A stretch of 61,863 bases of DNA, counting the filler. It is 5 parts of 5 records of this genome, joined end to end, with 100 filler letters (N's around TTAATTAATTAA, not from the genome) between each part and the next. Parts side by side here need not be neighbours in the genome. Positions count along the whole stretch, not along the records: positions 1 to 18,781 come from SRR22947725_1362; 4 more parts are not named here. One strand, written 5' to 3'. The position numbers were made by a program, and so were the translations under genes. The notes below the pieces were generated by a model that did no database searches, was not told where the DNA came from, and saw only the letters and a list, made by a program, of their open reading frames with translations. Of the stretch, positions 2,940 to 15,804 are shown piece after piece. The stretch's first letter is position 1. Every line of letters begins with the position of its first letter.

Positions 2940-3778
2940 GGTATTTAGAAGACATGATATTAAAGCTCGGCTCTGTTGATAGAAGGTATATCTTTCTATT
3001 AATTGGTTTAGCAGTATTGATACCGCTTTTACGCCCTATTGATCTACCAATTAGAACAACACCAACTACTGAAAAAGTTTATAATGCAATTGCAGAAATA
3101 CCTGCTAATTCAAAAGTATTAATGTCATTTGATTATGGCCCAAGTACTAAGCCTGAAATTCATCCAATGACATTGGGTGTTATGAGACAGCTTTTACGCG
3201 AAGATCACCAGATATATATTACATGTTTATGGCCAGATGGGCTTTATATGGCGCTGGATGCATTAGAAGAGATTAATCAAGAATTTGAATTGGTAGAATA
3301 CGAAGATTACGTTTTATTGGGCTTTAGGCCAGGAAATGAAGCAATTGTTAAAGGTCTTGCTAGTGATTTACGCAAGGTATACACTGTAGATTATAAACAA
3401 ACAATGCTTGCAGATATTCCTATGATGGACGGTATAAACAATTTAAAAGATTTTCAATTTATTTTTACTGGCTCTGCTGGATATCCAGGGACTTTTGAAT
3501 GGGTTCAGTATGGTGGTGATCCAACAGGTGTGCCGCTATCGTCCGGAACAACATCTATTCAAGTAAATGAAGTAATGCCATATGTTCAGAGTGGGCAGGT
3601 AAGAGGAATACTTGCTGGAATGCCGGGGGCAGCGGAATATGAAAAATTAATTGGTACACCAGGTATTGCAATTCAAGGAATGGCAGCACAATCATTTGCT
3701 CATCTTGTAATTGTGTTGTTTATTGTCTTAGGTAATTTAGCCTATTTTATAACCGAGAGAAGAGAGAGGAAATACTAA
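2936..3778 (+). CDS. Membrane-anchored protein with a soluble alpha/beta domain, probable distant paralog of 1157-2035
   Basis: N-terminal TM after DRR, soluble core (SFDYGPS..PE..PM), C-terminal TM followed by RRERKY; ATGA overlap. Confidence 0.75.
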   Translation: MRYLEDMILKLGSVDRRYIFLLIGLAVLIPLLRPIDLPIRTTPTTEKVYNAIAEIPANSKVLMSFDYGPSTKPEIHPMTLGVMRQLLREDHQIYITCLWPDGLYMALDALEEINQEFELVEYEDYVLLGFRPGNEAIVKGLASDLRKVYTVDYKQTMLADIPMMDGINNLKDFQFIFTGSAGYPGTFEWVQYGGDPTGVPLSSGTTSIQVNEVMPYVQSGQVRGILAGMPGAAEYEKLIGTPGIAIQGMAAQSFAHLVIVLFIVLGNLAYFITERRERKY

Positions 3779-11057: not shown

Positions 11058-11924
11058 ATGTTAAAAAAGATTTTATTATCATTGTTGATGTTTGGTTTTA
11101 TATCAGCAAATATGCCAAAAGTTATATTAATTACTGGTACAGCATTAGGTATTGGAAAGTCTGCTGCAGAATACTTAATTGATAAAGGTCATATTATTTA
11201 CGGGGGAGACATTCTTGTCGAAGAAAATCTCTATTTAAATGATATTGGAGGAATAGCGCTTGAGATGGATGTCACTAATCAAGAGCATATTGATAAAGCA
11301 GTTCAGCAAATCATTAATGAGCATGGAAGAATTGATGTTCTAGTAAATAATGCTGGTTTGGGTGTATATGGAGCTATTGAAGAAGTCACCATGGAGGACG
11401 CTTATTATCAGTATGATGTTAATTTGTTTGGATTAGCTAGAGTTACAAAATCAGTACTTCCTCATATGAGAAAGCAAAAGAGTGGAACGATAATTAATAT
11501 CAGTTCAGTGCTAGGAGAAACTTACGGTCCTTTAGCAGGATGGTATTTGTCAAGTAAGCATGCACTAGAAGGTTGGTCAGATGCATTAAGAGTAGAATTG
11601 AAAGAATTTGATATTGATGTAGTTATTGTGCAGCCTGGAGCTATAAATACTAATTTTTTTAATATTTCGGGAAGTTATTTAGATAAATACAGAGAAGATT
11701 CTAATTATCTGCATTTGTATGGACAGCCGGTTACTGATTCAGAAAGCTCAGTTCTCTCAAATCAATCCGATCCAATTGTAATTGCAAAAGTAATAAATAA
11801 AGCAATAAATGCTCGTAATCCAAAAACTAGATATGCTGCTGGAGCTTACAGTAAGCTGGGTAAATTTTTAAGACAAATTATGACAGATAAAATGTTCGAT
11901 AGATTCATTCTTTTTATTAATTAA
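11058..11924 (+). CDS. Short-chain dehydrogenase/reductase with N-terminal signal-peptide-like leader (copy 1)
   Basis: TGTALGIG, VNNAG, NISS and YLSSK; RBS AAGGAG; leader MLKKILLSLLMFGFISA. Confidence 0.9.
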   Translation: MLKKILLSLLMFGFISANMPKVILITGTALGIGKSAAEYLIDKGHIIYGGDILVEENLYLNDIGGIALEMDVTNQEHIDKAVQQIINEHGRIDVLVNNAGLGVYGAIEEVTMEDAYYQYDVNLFGLARVTKSVLPHMRKQKSGTIINISSVLGETYGPLAGWYLSSKHALEGWSDALRVELKEFDIDVVIVQPGAINTNFFNISGSYLDKYREDSNYLHLYGQPVTDSESSVLSNQSDPIVIAKVINKAINARNPKTRYAAGAYSKLGKFLRQIMTDKMFDRFILFIN

Positions 11925-11944: not shown

Positions 11945-12814
11945 ATGTTTAAAAAATTTATTATAACAATGTTGCTTGTTGGAAGTGTTTTTTCTTCTGA
12001 TAAGCAGAAAGTTGTATTAATTACTGGTACCGCTCATGGTATCGGTAAGTCTACAGCTCAATATTTAATTGATAAAGGTCATATTGTTTACGGTGGAGAT
12101 ATCTTGGTTGAAGAAAACCTATATCTAAATGACATTGGTGGAATTTCATTAGAAATGGACGTAACAAAACAAGATCATGTCGATAATGCTATCAATCAAA
12201 TTATTGCAGAACAAGGTAGAATAGATGTTTTAGTAAACAATGCTGGAATTGCAGTCGGTAGTGCTATTGAGGATGTATCAATGGAAGATGCGATGTACCA
12301 ATTTGAAGTAAATTTATTCGGCATCGGAAGAACTGTTAAAGCAGCTTTACCTCATATGAGAGAGCAGGGAAGTGGAACTATTATCAATATTTCTTCAGTA
12401 TTAGGCAAGGCATATAATCCTCTTTATGGGTGGTACGTTTCATCAAAACATGCTCTTGAAGGTTGGTCTGATGTACTTAGATTAGAAGTGAAACAGTTTG
12501 GAATAGATGTAGTTATTATTGAGCCAGGAATGATCAAAACAAACATTGGTAATTATTCAGCTCAATATTTTGAGAAGTATAGTAAAAATTCAGAATATAA
12601 AAATTTCTATGGTTCTCCAGATGATTCGGATGAAAACACATTTGACGATTATTCTGACCCGATAGTAATAGCAAAAGTTATTGATAAGGCAATAAACGCT
12701 AAAAATCCTAAAACAAGGTACTCAGCTGGTGCATATAGCTGGATACTTTTAACAATGAGAAGTATATTACCTGACAAATGGTTTGACAGTTTAATTGTGA
12801 AAGTTACAGGTTAA
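11945..12814 (+). CDS. Short-chain dehydrogenase/reductase with signal-peptide-like leader (copy 2, tandem paralog)
   Basis: TGTAHGIG, VNNAG and YVSSK; long stretches shared with copy 1 (YLIDKGH..YGGDILVEENLYLNDIGGI); RBS AAGGAG. Confidence 0.9.
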   Translation: MFKKFIITMLLVGSVFSSDKQKVVLITGTAHGIGKSTAQYLIDKGHIVYGGDILVEENLYLNDIGGISLEMDVTKQDHVDNAINQIIAEQGRIDVLVNNAGIAVGSAIEDVSMEDAMYQFEVNLFGIGRTVKAALPHMREQGSGTIINISSVLGKAYNPLYGWYVSSKHALEGWSDVLRLEVKQFGIDVVIIEPGMIKTNIGNYSAQYFEKYSKNSEYKNFYGSPDDSDENTFDDYSDPIVIAKVIDKAINAKNPKTRYSAGAYSWILLTMRSILPDKWFDSLIVKVTG

Positions 12815-12833: not shown

Positions 12834-12907
12834 GGGCGATTAGCTCAGTTGGTTAGAGCATCTGCTCGACATGTAGAGGGTCGGGAGTTCGAATCTCTCA
12901 TCGCCCA
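12834..12907 (+). tRNA. tRNA-Val(GAC), CCA not encoded
   Basis: Full cloverleaf: acceptor GGGCGAT/ATCGCCC, D stem GCTC/GAGC, anticodon stem TCTGC/GTAGA with loop TCGACAT, T loop TTCGAAT. Confidence 0.95.
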
Positions 12908-12924
12908 CGACGACAAAACATGAT

Positions 12925-12962
12925 AAAAGAGGGTTTAGATTAATTTCTAAGCCCTTTTTTTT
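12925..12962 (+). terminator. Rho-independent terminator after tRNA-Val
   Basis: Stem AGAGGGTTTAGA/TCTAAGCCCTTT, loop TTAATT, T-run downstream and A-run upstream. Confidence 0.85.
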
Positions 12963-12995
12963 GCGACATTGCCCTCGTCTGAAAGCGAAATAAAA

Positions 12996-13017
12996 TTGCA
13001 TAGTATTTGCATAGTAT
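12996..13017. repeat. Tandem 11-bp direct repeat TTGCATAGTAT x2, possible integrase arm-type sites
   Basis: Perfect tandem copy about 90 bp inside the left att-like repeat. Confidence 0.6.
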
Positions 13018-13059
13018 CTGTTGCCTACCTTTTTTTCTTTAAACTCCTTATATTTTGTT

Positions 13060-13158
13060 ATGGATTTAACTTCTATTATTATTAGTATCGTTCTGTTCGT
13101 AGTCATACCAGCATTTGTCTTTGTTATGGCTATTATGTTAGACACAGACGATAGATAA
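13060..13158 (+). CDS. 32-aa single-TM microprotein MDLTSIIISIVLFVVIPAFVFVMAIMLDTDDR
   Basis: Hand-translated; ATG lies 5 nt after TATATT; one long hydrophobic helix and an acidic tail. Confidence 0.6.
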   Translation: MDLTSIIISIVLFVVIPAFVFVMAIMLDTDDR

Positions 13159-13191
13159 ACCTTCTTCCAATATTACTCCTTATATTTAGTT

Positions 13192-13275
13192 ATGGATTTA
13201 TCAGACATATTATTAATAATAGGTGCAGTTTGTATGGTTGGAACTTTAATACTTCAGTTTATCGCCAAAAGATAA
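13192..13275 (+). CDS. 27-aa single-TM microprotein MDLSDILLIIGAVCMVGTLILQFIAKR
   Basis: Hand-translated; same start context (GTTATGGATTTA) and stop context (AGATAAACCTTCT) as 13060-13158. Confidence 0.6.
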   Translation: MDLSDILLIIGAVCMVGTLILQFIAKR

Positions 13276-13370
13276 ACCTTCTGTTCTTTAAACTGCTTAT
13301 ATAATTTTTAATTAAGGTATAAAACTGGTGTAAAACACACCAAAATAGGGCGTTTATCGTCTGAGTAAAC

Positions 13371-13418
13371 TCTACTCGACATGTAGAGGGTCAGGAGTTC
13401 GAATCTCTCATCGCCCAC
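13371..13418 (+). repeat. Duplicated 3' half of tRNA-Val (attR-like)
   Basis: TCTACTCGACATGTAGAGGGTCAGGAGTTCGAATCTCTCATCGCCCAC with no tRNA 5' half upstream. Confidence 0.9.
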
Positions 13419-13477
13419 TTCCAATAAAACGTAAAGCAAGCTTTACATTTGACATTTTTTAGCATATATTTAATTTC

Positions 13478-15166
13478 ATGAAATTCAAAAAAATACTATT
13501 ATATACTCTTCTATCAATCACTTTTTTGCAAGCACAAGGTAAGTCTTATAAAATTCTTAGCACAAATATTGAATCAAATATTCTCAAAGAGGGAATAGTT
13601 GAAATACAAGAAAAAAGAGTGTTCAGTTTCAAAGGAAACTATTCTTTTGTGTTTAGAGATATTTGGAAAAAGGGGTATGATCAATTGTACGATATCCAAG
13701 TATTTGAAGGAGATAAACCTTATTTAAATACTGAAATTGAAGAAGAAGGAAATTTTAGAATTGAATCAAGAGATAGGTATTACCGTATTTATTGGTATCA
13801 CTCATCGACAGATGAGAATAAAACATTCACTTTGAAGTATAAATTAAAAAATCCTTTTACGATTGGAAAAACAGATGCACAATTTCGTTGGGTATATTTA
13901 GATGATAAATTTGACAAACGTCCAGGAAAGTTAAGTTTGACACAAAAGTTTAATGGCATTGTAGATACAAACGCTATAGACTTTTCTGTTGAACAACCAA
14001 TTAGATCTAAAAAGTATAAATTTTCAAAAAAAGAAAATGGTATTTTTGAATTGTCTTCTGACTCATTTTCTAAAAAAAATGTTTTGCAGCTGCGAACAAT
14101 ATTTCCGACTTCATACTTGTCAAATTCATCTATCAATAATGAGAACTTTTCTCTTGCTGGATTACTGTTAGAGGAAAGAAATCAAAGATTGGTTATTTAC
14201 GGTATTATTGCTATGACGCTTTTTTCTTTATTGATTGGAATAAACTTCATGAGAAAACATGTAGTTGACCATAAAGTAGAAATTAGTGACGATGTAAACT
14301 TTACAGAATTTCCATCCACTCATCATCCAGTGCTAATAGGGTGGCTTATTTGGCGATATCCAAGCGTTAGCGCTACTGGTATTCTTGGAACTTTATTCGA
14401 GTTAGCAAGTAGAAAGAAAGTTCATCTTGAGACGGTTGAGTCGGGTAAGTGGATTTTTAAATCAAAGAAATTAAAAGTTGATGTTATCAATTCAGATACA
14501 TCTAATTTATCTAATAGTTTTTCAAAATTACTGCTTGATAGAATTTTAACAATCGGAACTAGCACTTATTTCTCAAAAATATGGCTTAAATATTCATTCT
14601 CTCATTCCAAGTGGAAACAAAATCGTACAAAAAAAATTAAGGAATTAGGATGGTTAGATACTTCTGGAGATCAAGAAAGAACTAATCTCATCCTACTCCA
14701 GGTAATTATATTTTTTTTAATAATTGGATTAAGTATTTTTTACGGAATATTTTGGAGTGTACTTTTTACCATTATACCATCAACAATGCTACTGATGATC
14801 GCCCTGGCGTCCAGACTTACTAAAGAGGGTCAAGAATTGTTTTTAAGGTGGTGTGCATTTGGAGATGCGCTCAAAAAAAATAAGTTAAATATACAAGGTT
14901 TTGAACCAGACCTTTTATTGCAATACTGTATTGTCATGGGCATGCATGGGGAAGAGCTTAAAGACGTGATCAATAAAGCAAACCAAGATGGAACATGTTA
15001 TATATGGTATGGAGGAGGCACTCCTTCTGATGTTTCTACTATCACGGCTGGTATTGCCGATATTGCAACTACTGGAACAGCTATCTCTGCGTCATATGGC
15101 GGCGATGGTGGCGGTGGTGCTGGAGGTGGTGGCGCTGGCGGTGGCGGTGGCGGTGGAGCTGGGTAG
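13478..15166 (+). CDS. DUF2207-family membrane protein with Gly-rich C-tail
   Basis: Signal peptide, soluble N-domain, TM segments, LTKEGQE...W..F...L and a terminal GGGGAGGGGGGGAG. Confidence 0.85.
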   Translation: MKFKKILLYTLLSITFLQAQGKSYKILSTNIESNILKEGIVEIQEKRVFSFKGNYSFVFRDIWKKGYDQLYDIQVFEGDKPYLNTEIEEEGNFRIESRDRYYRIYWYHSSTDENKTFTLKYKLKNPFTIGKTDAQFRWVYLDDKFDKRPGKLSLTQKFNGIVDTNAIDFSVEQPIRSKKYKFSKKENGIFELSSDSFSKKNVLQLRTIFPTSYLSNSSINNENFSLAGLLLEERNQRLVIYGIIAMTLFSLLIGINFMRKHVVDHKVEISDDVNFTEFPSTHHPVLIGWLIWRYPSVSATGILGTLFELASRKKVHLETVESGKWIFKSKKLKVDVINSDTSNLSNSFSKLLLDRILTIGTSTYFSKIWLKYSFSHSKWKQNRTKKIKELGWLDTSGDQERTNLILLQVIIFFLIIGLSIFYGIFWSVLFTIIPSTMLLMIALASRLTKEGQELFLRWCAFGDALKKNKLNIQGFEPDLLLQYCIVMGMHGEELKDVINKANQDGTCYIWYGGGTPSDVSTITAGIADIATTGTAISASYGGDGGGGAGGGGAGGGGGGGAG

Positions 15167-15246: not shown

Positions 15247-15375
15247 ATGTTAAATAAAATAAACATCTTAGCTGAAAAATTAATGTCAATTCTCGATACA
15301 GTTTTGGGGGGTATTATCGCCGTATTCTTCACTCTCATCATTGTATATATGCTATTAAATGGAGGTATTAATTAA
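15247..15375 (+). CDS. 42-aa single-TM microprotein
   Basis: MLNKINILAEKLMSILDTVLGGIIAVFFTLIIVYMLLNGGIN; its stop overlaps the next start (TAATG). Confidence 0.55.
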   Translation: MLNKINILAEKLMSILDTVLGGIIAVFFTLIIVYMLLNGGIN

Positions 15376-15479
15376 TGGACGATATGATCGCTAAGTTTGT
15401 CAGTTTTTGTCTAGATACGAAGTTCGTTATCTTGTTAATTATTGTAGCATTTATTCTTAAGGTAATGAGTATTATTTAA
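15375..15479 (+). CDS. 34-aa single-TM microprotein
   Basis: MDDMIAKFVSFCLDTKFVILLIIVAFILKVMSII; GGAGGT RBS at 15361-15366; TAATG coupling. Confidence 0.6.
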   Translation: MDDMIAKFVSFCLDTKFVILLIIVAFILKVMSII

Positions 15480-15501
15480 ATATTTAATCAAGGGGTAGAA
15501 A

Positions 15502-15687
15502 ATGAATTCAAATTTATGGTATTTACTAATGATAATCTCAATTTTGATGGCAGTACTGCTATTTTTAAATCTTCCTGGATATGAAGATGCAGCGGATGCA
15601 CGTCAAGTTGGAGTATTTGTAGGTCTATGGGCACCAACATTTGGAATATTAGGTGTTAGGTCTCAATTAAATGAAAATAATAGGTAA
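15502..15687 (+). CDS. 61-aa two-TM small membrane protein
   Basis: ORF track; AAGGGG RBS; GVFVGLWAPTFG motif. Confidence 0.7.
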   Translation: MNSNLWYLLMIISILMAVLLFLNLPGYEDAADARQVGVFVGLWAPTFGILGVRSQLNENNR

Positions 15688-15693
15688 TAAATT

Positions 15694-15804
15694 ATGATTA
15701 CATGGGGTCCTTTTACAATGCAGCATCCGCTAGAGATACCTATGCTATTTCTATGTATTCTATTTGTCGTATTTATGGCATTTAGTATTGCAATGGATGA
15801 CTAG
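15694..15804 (+). CDS. 36-aa single-TM microprotein
   Basis: MITWGPFTMQHPLEIPMLFLCILFVVFMAFSIAMDD; starts 6 nt after the previous stop, with AGGT upstream. Confidence 0.55.
   Translation: MITWGPFTMQHPLEIPMLFLCILFVVFMAFSIAMDD

Follow-up and report, generated by a model that had tools for sequence, protein, structure and literature searches.

The window analyzed here (the whole stretch of DNA, 61,863 nucleotides [nt] with filler) opens with record SRR22947725_1362, which carries a 462-nt island directly downstream of a transfer RNA (tRNA) gene, tRNA-Val(GAC). Within the island, three direct copies of a short repeat, hereafter called the start module (R1, R2, and R3), delimit two tiny open reading frames (ORFs), cassettes 1 and 2, that encode different hydrophobic peptides. 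This array is real, non-random, modular, and derived from a mobile element. What makes it unusual is that a nearly invariant start module is fused to the AUG of very small genes for membrane proteins. We read the island as an integrase-less hybrid remnant of tyrosine-integrase elements in tRNA-Val(GAC) of one marine Marinimicrobia genus (genomes of ~1 Mb), with a payload of module-headed cassettes for membrane microproteins of 25 to 100 amino acids (aa), and we put the probability of this reading at roughly 70%. In what follows, labels such as G043 denote genomes of the genus and labels such as L226 denote loci on genome or metagenome contigs.

The array and the tRNA-Val(GAC) island

The features of the locus are as follows.

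12834..12908, + strand: tRNA-Val(GAC) (ARAGORN; Rfam tRNA, 63.8 bits)
12861-12908, + strand: left attachment (att)-type repeat, the 3' 48 nt of the tRNA (repeat family D1)
12909..13370, no strand: inserted island, 462 nt (insertion unit of 510 nt counting one 48-nt repeat)
12930..12963, no strand: hairpin and T-run just past the tRNA (read from the sequence; conserved with G011, L204, and L259; unlisted in the sigma-70 scan)
12996..13017, + strand: tandem TTGCATAGTAT x2, the "type 1" arm repeat (family D5)
13027..13059, + strand: start module R1 (repeat family D2, motif scan)
13060..13158, + strand: cassette 1, 32-aa single-span peptide MDLTSIIISIVLFVVIPAFVFVMAIMLDTDDR (orthologues, public gene calls)
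13153..13191, + strand: start module R2 (motif scan, sequence reading); the AGATAA inside it is the stop of cassette 1
13192..13275, + strand: cassette 2, 27-aa single-span peptide MDLSDILLIIGAVCMVGTLILQFIAKR (orthologue in G043)
13270..13302, + strand: start module R3, cut off after CTTATAT, its cassette gone
13316..13336, + strand: "type 2" arm-like repeat GGTATAAAAC / TGGTGTAAAAC (related repeats beside the tRNA in relatives)
13348..13418, + strand: pseudo-tRNA, right att-type repeat (family D1; Rfam; fold)
13478..15166, + strand: DUF2207 membrane protein gene, host flank outside the island (Pfam PF09972, PF20990)

A motif scan of the window found the pattern ACCTT-n11-ACTSCTTATAT, ungapped and on the + strand only, at 13027, 13159, and 13276, with spacings of 132 and 117 nt between the three direct copies. 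Only 0.13 occurrences are expected, and none of 100 shuffles contained three or more. TATATT ends 5 nt upstream of both ATGs, and sequence reading detected no AGGAG-like motif ahead of either one. Both ORFs open with GTTATGGATTTA and read into AGATAAACCTTCT, and since both close in the AGATAA of the following repeat unit, it is the repeat that provides the TAA stop codon. Each peptide contains one hydrophobic 17-aa window. The third copy continues into AATTTTTAATTAAGG, without an ATG. Here, the window equals G043 up to CTGCTTATA and diverges beyond it, G043 continuing with TTTAGTTATG and an ORF of at least 57 aa. As this G043 ORF is headed by the same junction, R3 represents a slot whose gene was lost. 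The R2-type junction is also found in G043, there without a preceding cassette. The original prediction, made from the letters of the window, had named the three ungapped copies, the two distinct single-span peptides with a common start and end, the TATATT without a ribosome-binding site, and the empty third slot, and all of these were recovered.

The whole array is bracketed by tRNA-Val(GAC) and a displaced copy of the tRNA 3' half, 48 nt at 13371-13418 with 96% identity, located 510 nt downstream (repeat family D1); neither of the two figured in the original prediction. In relatives G014, G003, and G023 the site is empty: the tRNA is followed directly by a flank starting TTCCAAT and then by the DUF2207 gene. 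In a genus-wide search, the left and right window flanks overlap by exactly 48 nt in these three genomes, which marks the 462 nt as an insertion that bears the classical hallmarks of integration into tRNA genes. No integrase ORF lies in the interval 12909-13370. The tRNA-like stretch at 13348-13417 scores 23.3 bits in Rfam, under the gathering score of 29, and its fold retains a 5-bp acceptor stem, with an acceptor-like GGGCGTTTAT ahead of the 48-nt copy. The A at 13374 agrees with CATCTACTC, the att-core word seen at element ends in other genomes.

Words like GGGCGTTTAT, which mimic the 5' acceptor strand of the tRNA, precede displaced fragments in the window (13348-13370), in G016 (L287, ~2420-2445 and ~3285-3310), and in G010 (L309, ~1335-1360); each right-hand att copy is therefore a near full-length pseudo-tRNA.

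Other genomes hold other content at the tRNA-Val(GAC) site, namely ~1.5 kb in G001 (the nearest genome), a different pair of cassettes in G011, an array in G043, a 95-aa membrane protein in G051, and in G010 an island of 1.3 kb that includes a partial tRNA of its own. Type 1 arm repeats recur in G011, on both sides in G001, and in L204, L259, and L167, in the last of these between the integrase and DUF5681 genes; type 2 repeats adjoin the tRNA in G043, G053, G054, and G010. As its two arms belong to these two repeat families, the window island is a recombinant (hybrid) of two element types. The contigs of DNA run X1 that carry the island are short and have word depths of 9.65 and 9.05, compared with 36.6 and 35.3 for the contigs flanking them. 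This drop hints at population heterogeneity, although contig depth does not equal copy number.

Spread of the start module and its cassettes

In total, 29 distinct module copies were collected from the same Marinimicrobia genus and from marine metagenome contigs. In 26 of these, the module core TCCTTATATTTnGTTATG has identical spacing and 15 of its 18 positions are invariant, with invariance at -15, -13 to -5, -2, +1, and +2 (T at -15, C at -13 through T at -5, T at -2, and TG in the start codon). Variation is seen at -24 to -16 and throughout the sequence beyond codon 2. Among 38 genomes of the genus (0.4 to 1.1 Mb), CCTTATATTTNGTTATG has nine matches in six genomes and none in the reversed control; allowing up to two mismatches, the numbers are 12 matches versus 3. 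Across an order-level sample, the core occurs in 6 of 201 genomes; all six belong to the genus (38 sampled), and the 163 genomes from 53 other genera have none (one match in the control). These genome counts are lower bounds, since metagenome-assembled genomes assemble such islands poorly. A 17-mer search of genome and metagenome contigs returned at least 120 and at least 121 loci, mostly single chance matches; among the matches listed, 14 loci have a second module or linker block, and twelve marine metagenome contigs carry the module along with linker blocks or a further copy. One of these, L260, duplicates part of L209 and was left out of later counts. Viral contigs contained 14 single-copy module loci and no arrays, and the insert had no blastn match among GenBank phages. 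The module is restricted to the genus and nearly invariant, while its flanks and the ORFs that follow it vary.

The genes behind the module are consistently small and hydrophobic. Of the 29 module-led ORFs, 27 encode 25 to 100 aa with at least one hydrophobic 17-aa window and the other two are broken (6 and 2 aa); for comparison, 38 of 255 random ATG ORFs in this size range within the window have such a hydrophobic stretch. Since orthologues are among the 29, this is not a count of independent families. The module heads at least 20 unrelated ORFs elsewhere. A named family was assigned to one of the 22 scanned cassettes: locus L283:231-398 of G013, directly upstream of a peptide-1 orthologue, encodes an Imm_superinfect protein (PF14373, 73.9 bits versus a cutoff of 27.9; phrog_1039, 1.2e-21). 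The idea of a modular array with variable content, for which a motif search for longer arrays had been proposed, is thereby supported: other peptides stand behind the module in relatives and metagenome contigs, with at least four cassettes in G013 and three module-led ORFs in L226.

Versions of peptide 1 are found in G013 (1 aa different), G016, and G015, and a related 25-aa ORF is present in L265. Between the window and G016, 22 of 99 nt differ with frame, length, and hydrophobic residues kept. The 32 coding codons show 7 synonymous changes and 8 conservative replacements, and the stop (33rd codon) is TAA versus TAG in G016. Peptide 1 is under coding constraint, and the window ORFs are genes. 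As a public gene call, peptide 1 appears as P0001 (6 member sequences), retrieved by a search with the 45-aa in-frame ORF that gave one cluster. P0002 and P0003, the only phmmer matches among 1.84 billion representatives, both read from the tRNA fragment into peptide 1. The C-terminus of peptide 1 is acidic. Peptide 2 differs by 1 aa in G043. In the ESM Atlas the best score was 0.84, under the level that the tool regards as meaningful, and the MgtS-like and YldA-like rows are leads only. A candidate direct repeat, TTATTAYTCC, lies at both cassette ends.

The same cassettes turn up in different company. Peptide 1 follows the arm repeats in the window, lies between the Imm_superinfect gene and a 73-aa cassette in G013, and is found after a partial tRNA-Val(TAC) in G016 and after tRNA-Ser in G015; peptide 2 is the second cassette in the window and the first in G043. 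At a tRNA-Met site, the flanks in G020 and G024, which take in the module and a hairpin further downstream, are near-identical, yet the ORFs they enclose (70 and 76 aa) are unrelated, so that two species have different cassettes at one site. A cassette of the L202 array is related to the one in G024. Many cassettes have a common 3' tag, (AAAGAT)TAATCCTCATCTTATTAT, after which comes the next module, element backbone, or CCAATAGA with the att core. The right-end word ATCTTATTATTCCAATAG has 13 matches in 10 of the 38 genus genomes and none in the control; viral and phage collections gave no match to the 3' tag. Gene swaps between relatives end at the repeats, both for G020 versus G024 and for the window versus G043 and G013. 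Cassettes thus reassort between sites and neighbours.

Several further arrangements were observed among the cargo. At L287 (G016:C6, 1652-3400), the 3' end of tRNA-Val(TAC) recurs twice downstream of the tRNA, with one cargo gene separating each copy from the next, and the locus looks like tandem islands; the G016 peptide-1 orthologue begins 6 nt past the last tRNA copy, without a module. Another conserved leader, ...ATCTTATTATTCCAATAGACATCTACTCTGAATAATCGTTAGATTTGTTGATTATG, stands before larger cargo genes of lipoprotein-like and DUF805-like types at L312 (G023:C14, ~1470-1840), L321 (G051:C22, ~1470-1840), G001:C2 (L324, 6485-8206), and G013:C32 (L315). In G023 and G051, one such unit is located directly past the DUF2207 stop codon and is absent in the window. 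The att-core word accompanies ATCTTATTATTCCAATAGACATCTACTCTGAATAATCGTTAGATTTGTTGATTATG-led units to non-tRNA sites. Glycine-zipper small membrane proteins (MGKKLSLGAMTGIGVGVGVAVGV...) with a clear Shine-Dalgarno (SD) sequence form the cargo at tRNA-Pro (L290, G022:C46, 1217-1560) and in the L209 island (64-290), and in G022 a broken module-led ORF comes after them.

Metagenome fragments connect the module to integrative elements. In L167, L190, L202, and L226 the first module abuts a divergent gene, and the first copy in L279 abuts the same gene. Its SD, AAGGAG, is the complement of the module's CTCCTT, and its start codon is the CAT 5 nt further. The product belongs to DUF5681 (PF18932, E values of 5.9e-11 and 6.8e-11). 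In L167 a tyrosine integrase adjoins this gene (PF00589, 2e-13; phrog_1, 5.7e-38), with TGCATA..TGCATA repeats between the two, and in L226 a DnaD-like replication initiator comes after the array (phrog_2514, 5.4e-23). In the fragments that carry integrase and/or DUF5681, the core forms the divergent region between leftward genes and rightward cassettes. Combined, these short fragments suggest an element layout of integrase, DUF5681, module, cassettes, and replication gene, as a composite of separate contigs. Neither the DUF5681 protein nor the integrase had a relative in the viral and phage collections.

The chromosomal copies have lost the integrase and most of the DUF5681 gene. Stubs of its 5' end stand ahead of the module in G011, L204, L259, and class-C junctions, scoring 13 to 27 against a control 99th percentile of 12. 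Those in G011, L204, and L259 span 10 codons (scores of 19 to 27), and these loci retain TGCATAGTAT repeats, as does the window at 12996-13017. For the window itself, the upstream part of R1 scores 12 against the DUF5681 stub, which equals the control 99th percentile and is borderline. Since, in addition, the scores of R2 and R3 are not significant, a derivation of the window junctions from the DUF5681 5' region is graded as suggestive only. Two candidates were rejected. By eye, a 7-nt deletion in the DUF5681 5' end seemed to yield the GATAAACCTTCT-type junction, but the similarity is not significant. Reading TAAGGAG as a minus-strand SD works only for the divergent DUF5681 gene of the metagenome fragments, as no minus-strand ORF follows in the window.

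The junctions are free of secondary structure, with minimum free energies of 0 to -1.9 kcal/mol and z scores of 0.1 to 1.0 on both strands. TATATT matches the -10 consensus at five of six positions. Host genes show an SD-like peak 5 to 9 nt before the ATG, and a -10-like hexamer 5 to 7 nt before it in 1 of 115 per spacing. Module-led starts are therefore atypical for this host. TATATT at 5 nt before the AUG would set the transcript start at the start codon itself and thereby allow a leaderless mRNA, and a promoter in each cassette followed by leaderless translation would fit the geometry.

The immediate neighbours of the array are a short-chain dehydrogenase/reductase (SDR) gene, the tRNA, and the DUF2207 gene. 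Two tandem short-chain dehydrogenase paralogues (11058-11924 and 11945-12814) lie directly upstream of the tRNA, and this paralogy explains a 67%-identity match in G001. Between 13442 and 13477, the best promoter-like site of the region (TTTACA-17-TATATT, 10 of 12) ends 7 nt before the DUF2207 ATG, so the leader of this host gene may be very short or absent. The C-terminus of the DUF2207 protein (15090-15166) has a glycine-rich tail, GGDGGGGAGGGGAGGGGGGGAG, whose length differs among G023, G051, and the window. Just downstream, four consecutive ORFs of 42, 34, 61, and 36 aa with hydrophobic spans occupy 15247-15804. They have no module, at least one has GGAGG 9 nt before its ATG, and the block partly recurs in G023 and G051.

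Interpretation and alternatives

Under the reading given at the outset, the structure-free module would start transcription and/or SD-independent translation of each cassette, the shared module and 3' tag would offer the homology for cassette exchange, by analogy with the regulatory repeats of T4-type phages discussed below, and the microproteins may act in the inner membrane against incoming phages or elements. A bolder version holds that this is a cassette system without attC, in which the 18-nt invariant and possibly leaderless module, together with the 18-nt post-stop tag, lets tRNA-targeting elements and their remnants exchange and stack diverse membrane microproteins as a fast-turnover population shield against phage entry. 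We regard this version as possible, with the odds some way against it.

A number of observations weigh against our reading. The DUF5681 gene was found in 0 of the 38 genus genomes, and their integrase genes amount to fragments in G001:C2 and G013:C24 and one distant full-length gene in G053; no genus genome searched carried an integrase- or DUF5681-bearing element. As the metagenome fragments carry no host flank, their link to tRNA-Val runs through shared arm repeats, modules, and cassettes, and we infer the host of the fragments with integrase and DUF5681. The GATAAACCTTCT-type junctions of R2 and R3 score 8 to 11 against the DUF5681 5' end, with a control 95th percentile of 11. The sigma-70 scan detected no -35/-10 pair at R1, R2, or R3, and an upstream promoter-like site, TTGCCC-16-TAAAAT at 12969-12996, could transcribe the array as an operon; together these make a single-promoter operon a serious rival. 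The leaderless, self-promoted units proposed originally would have the right -10-like spacing, but no sigma-70-type -35 was detected at any of the three copies. RNA-library contigs, which may include DNA and give neither strand nor transcript ends, contain module copies and part of a variant of 12848-13109. This variant is record 23 of X16 and has 22 differences, and the module copies on X14 and X16 contigs (word depth 15 to 29) have other flanks. The missing cover over most of 13064-13500 in X14 and X15 proves nothing. The invariance of the core could also reflect recent spread instead of function.

The weakest step is the exclusion of phages or elements, drawn from one annotated neighbour among 22 cassettes. 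Neither window peptide belongs to any Pfam, PHROGs, or PADLOC family, including the Imm_superinfect (PF14373) profile, and a PADLOC scan of 24 proteins gave nothing at an E value below 0.04. Of the roles originally put forward, phage exclusion fits the superinfection-immunity cassette beside the peptide-1 orthologue; no test supported a type I toxin or a transporter modulator.

The strongest competitor treats the module as a fossil, conserved only through recent copying along with the DUF5681 ribosome-binding site and 5' end, the genes being served by one upstream promoter and ordinary SD-independent initiation, and the arrays being stacked, deletion-trimmed integration remnants. The exact complementarity of CTCCTT to the DUF5681 SD, the DUF5681 stubs ahead of many module copies, and the promoter-like site at 12969-12996 in the absence of -35 elements at the window copies all agree with this account. 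So do the roughly two thirds of host genes without an SD-like motif (18 of 57 have one), the lack of terminator-like hairpins between the cassettes upon folding, and the tandem integrations and remnants of tycheposons described in the consulted part of that work (10.1101/2020.12.28.424599). Against the fossil stands the sharp end of invariance at either edge of the 18-nt core, next to an SD-side block (-24 to -16) that varies. Moreover, R3 and its G043 counterpart lack the SD complement (CTGCTT) and keep the rest of the core, and the G043 copy heads an ORF. Simple stacking would leave partial tRNA copies between cassettes, of which there are none, and at the tRNA-Met site the module heads cassettes without any remnant of element arms. 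We consider this explanation rather unlikely. Less likely again is an integron-like site-specific recombinase that acts on the junctions, either at the core or at the breakpoint after CCAATAG. The breakpoints are sharp and recurring (CCAATAG|A joins the att core, the module, or a GATAAACC block), the att-core word travels with cassettes to non-tRNA sites, the right-end motif recurs in genus genomes and is absent from the control, as counted above, and element fragments do carry a tyrosine integrase. Yet the junctions have no attC-type inverted repeat or hairpin, reading of the 18-nt core revealed no inverted core-type sites, and there is no integrase in or beside the window array. The mosaic junctions with their several breakpoints are better explained by homology-driven or illegitimate recombination.

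A role as type I toxins, with an undetected antisense RNA for every peptide, strikes us as very improbable. In size and composition the peptides do resemble such toxins, being small, hydrophobic, single-span, and without an SD on a mobile-element remnant, and weak minus-strand promoter-like sites lie inside cassette 1. Against this, Rfam contained no known antitoxin or small RNA family at E values up to 1, no conserved antisense element or fold was found, the C-terminus of peptide 1 is acidic, and the same slot holds cassettes of up to 100 aa with two spans as well as the Imm_superinfect member. Finally, a single tandem duplication that decayed in place, with ORFs that are not genes, would produce three direct repeats at spacings of 132 and 117 nt and the shared ORF ends. 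It has next to no chance of being correct and is already contradicted: either ORF has orthologues of its own, in different surroundings in other genomes, peptide 1 is maintained over 22% nucleotide divergence, and elsewhere the module heads at least 20 unrelated ORFs.

Uncultured, genome-reduced ocean bacteria are presumed to have few ways of gaining genes, and tRNA-linked islands are their main flexible compartment. At a scale of 0.5 kb, the present locus displays how such an island is built, with its arms, att repeats, and a stack of genes so small that standard annotation largely skips them, each preceded by one and the same short signal. Should the module prove to be both an autonomous start signal and a recombination handle, it would be a compact natural expression cassette for a phylum without genetic tools, and searching for modules instead of ORFs would reveal hidden metagenome microproteins. 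If the cassettes are phage-exclusion factors, they would amount to a new pool of such proteins, highly diverse, in a lineage that is abundant in the ocean.

Comparison with known systems

Two kinds of tRNA-associated islands provide the closest match in layout. According to the cited part of PMC4383910, tDNA islands feature a regenerated tRNA gene and a displaced 3' fragment as a direct repeat. The tycheposons of Prochlorococcus, in the consulted part of their description, use tRNA targets and leave partial tRNAs, tandem integrations, and remnants, with cargo beside integration and replication modules (10.1101/2020.12.28.424599). The window shares with them the intact tRNA, the displaced 3' fragment, the empty site in relatives, and a streamlined marine host. 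Further shared traits are a variable site with differing cargo, degenerate remnants, and signs of successive integrations, and related fragments carry a tyrosine integrase and a replication gene. In contrast, the window island measures 462 nt and has neither an integrase nor a replication gene, and by the lack of an integrase it departs from the tDNA-island pattern. Its host is a Marinimicrobia genus and not Prochlorococcus. Tycheposons are marked by tyrosine or serine recombinases of their own clades and by shared hallmark replication genes, and the island may be likened to them in layout. In addition, a repeated start module before micro-ORF cassettes goes unmentioned in the consulted part of the tycheposon paper, where the word "promoter" occurs 0 times in the main text (10.1101/2020.12.28.424599).

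With regard to cassette exchange, the best parallel is offered by the promoter early stem-loops (PeSLs) of T4-type phages. As presented in the consulted part of PMC2839356, these are short regulatory repeats between small, mostly orphan genes in a hyperplastic region, where swaps, insertions, and deletions end at the repeats. Both systems, as far as that part of the article describes PeSLs, have conserved short repeats between small genes, at which swaps between close relatives end. By the same comparison, the window junctions differ in having no stem-loop or terminator and no detected sigma-70-type -35, and their core abuts the start codon; the setting here is a chromosomal island or integrative element rather than a T4-type phage.

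Integron cassettes are also tandem small, mostly single-gene units with conserved boundaries and a link to tyrosine recombinases. Unlike these, the array has no attC-like hairpin on either strand and no integron integrase, attI, or Pc beside it, and its conserved element marks the 5' start of every gene, ATG included. The array is not an integron. Prophage morons are independent promoter-terminator units. Together with superinfection-exclusion proteins (T4 Imm, PF14373), they resemble the cassettes as small inner-membrane accessory proteins of a mobile element that are opposite in orientation to the neighbouring element genes. One cassette of the wider array family is a bona fide PF14373 member, in contrast to both window peptides.

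Cis-mobilizable elements (CIMEs) are integrase-less derivatives of integrative elements that retain both att sites. The window island likewise has both att-type and arm-like repeats and no integrase. Its arms stem from two repeat families, which disfavours a functional mini-element and favours a recombinant remnant. Literature searches on islands, hypervariable regions, and mobile elements of Marinimicrobia/SAR406/Marinisomatota brought up no account of such islands or modules for the phylum. Taken together, the tRNA-island remnant and the repeat-mediated shuffling of cassettes are known phenomena, and what sets this locus apart is the almost invariant module fused to the AUG.

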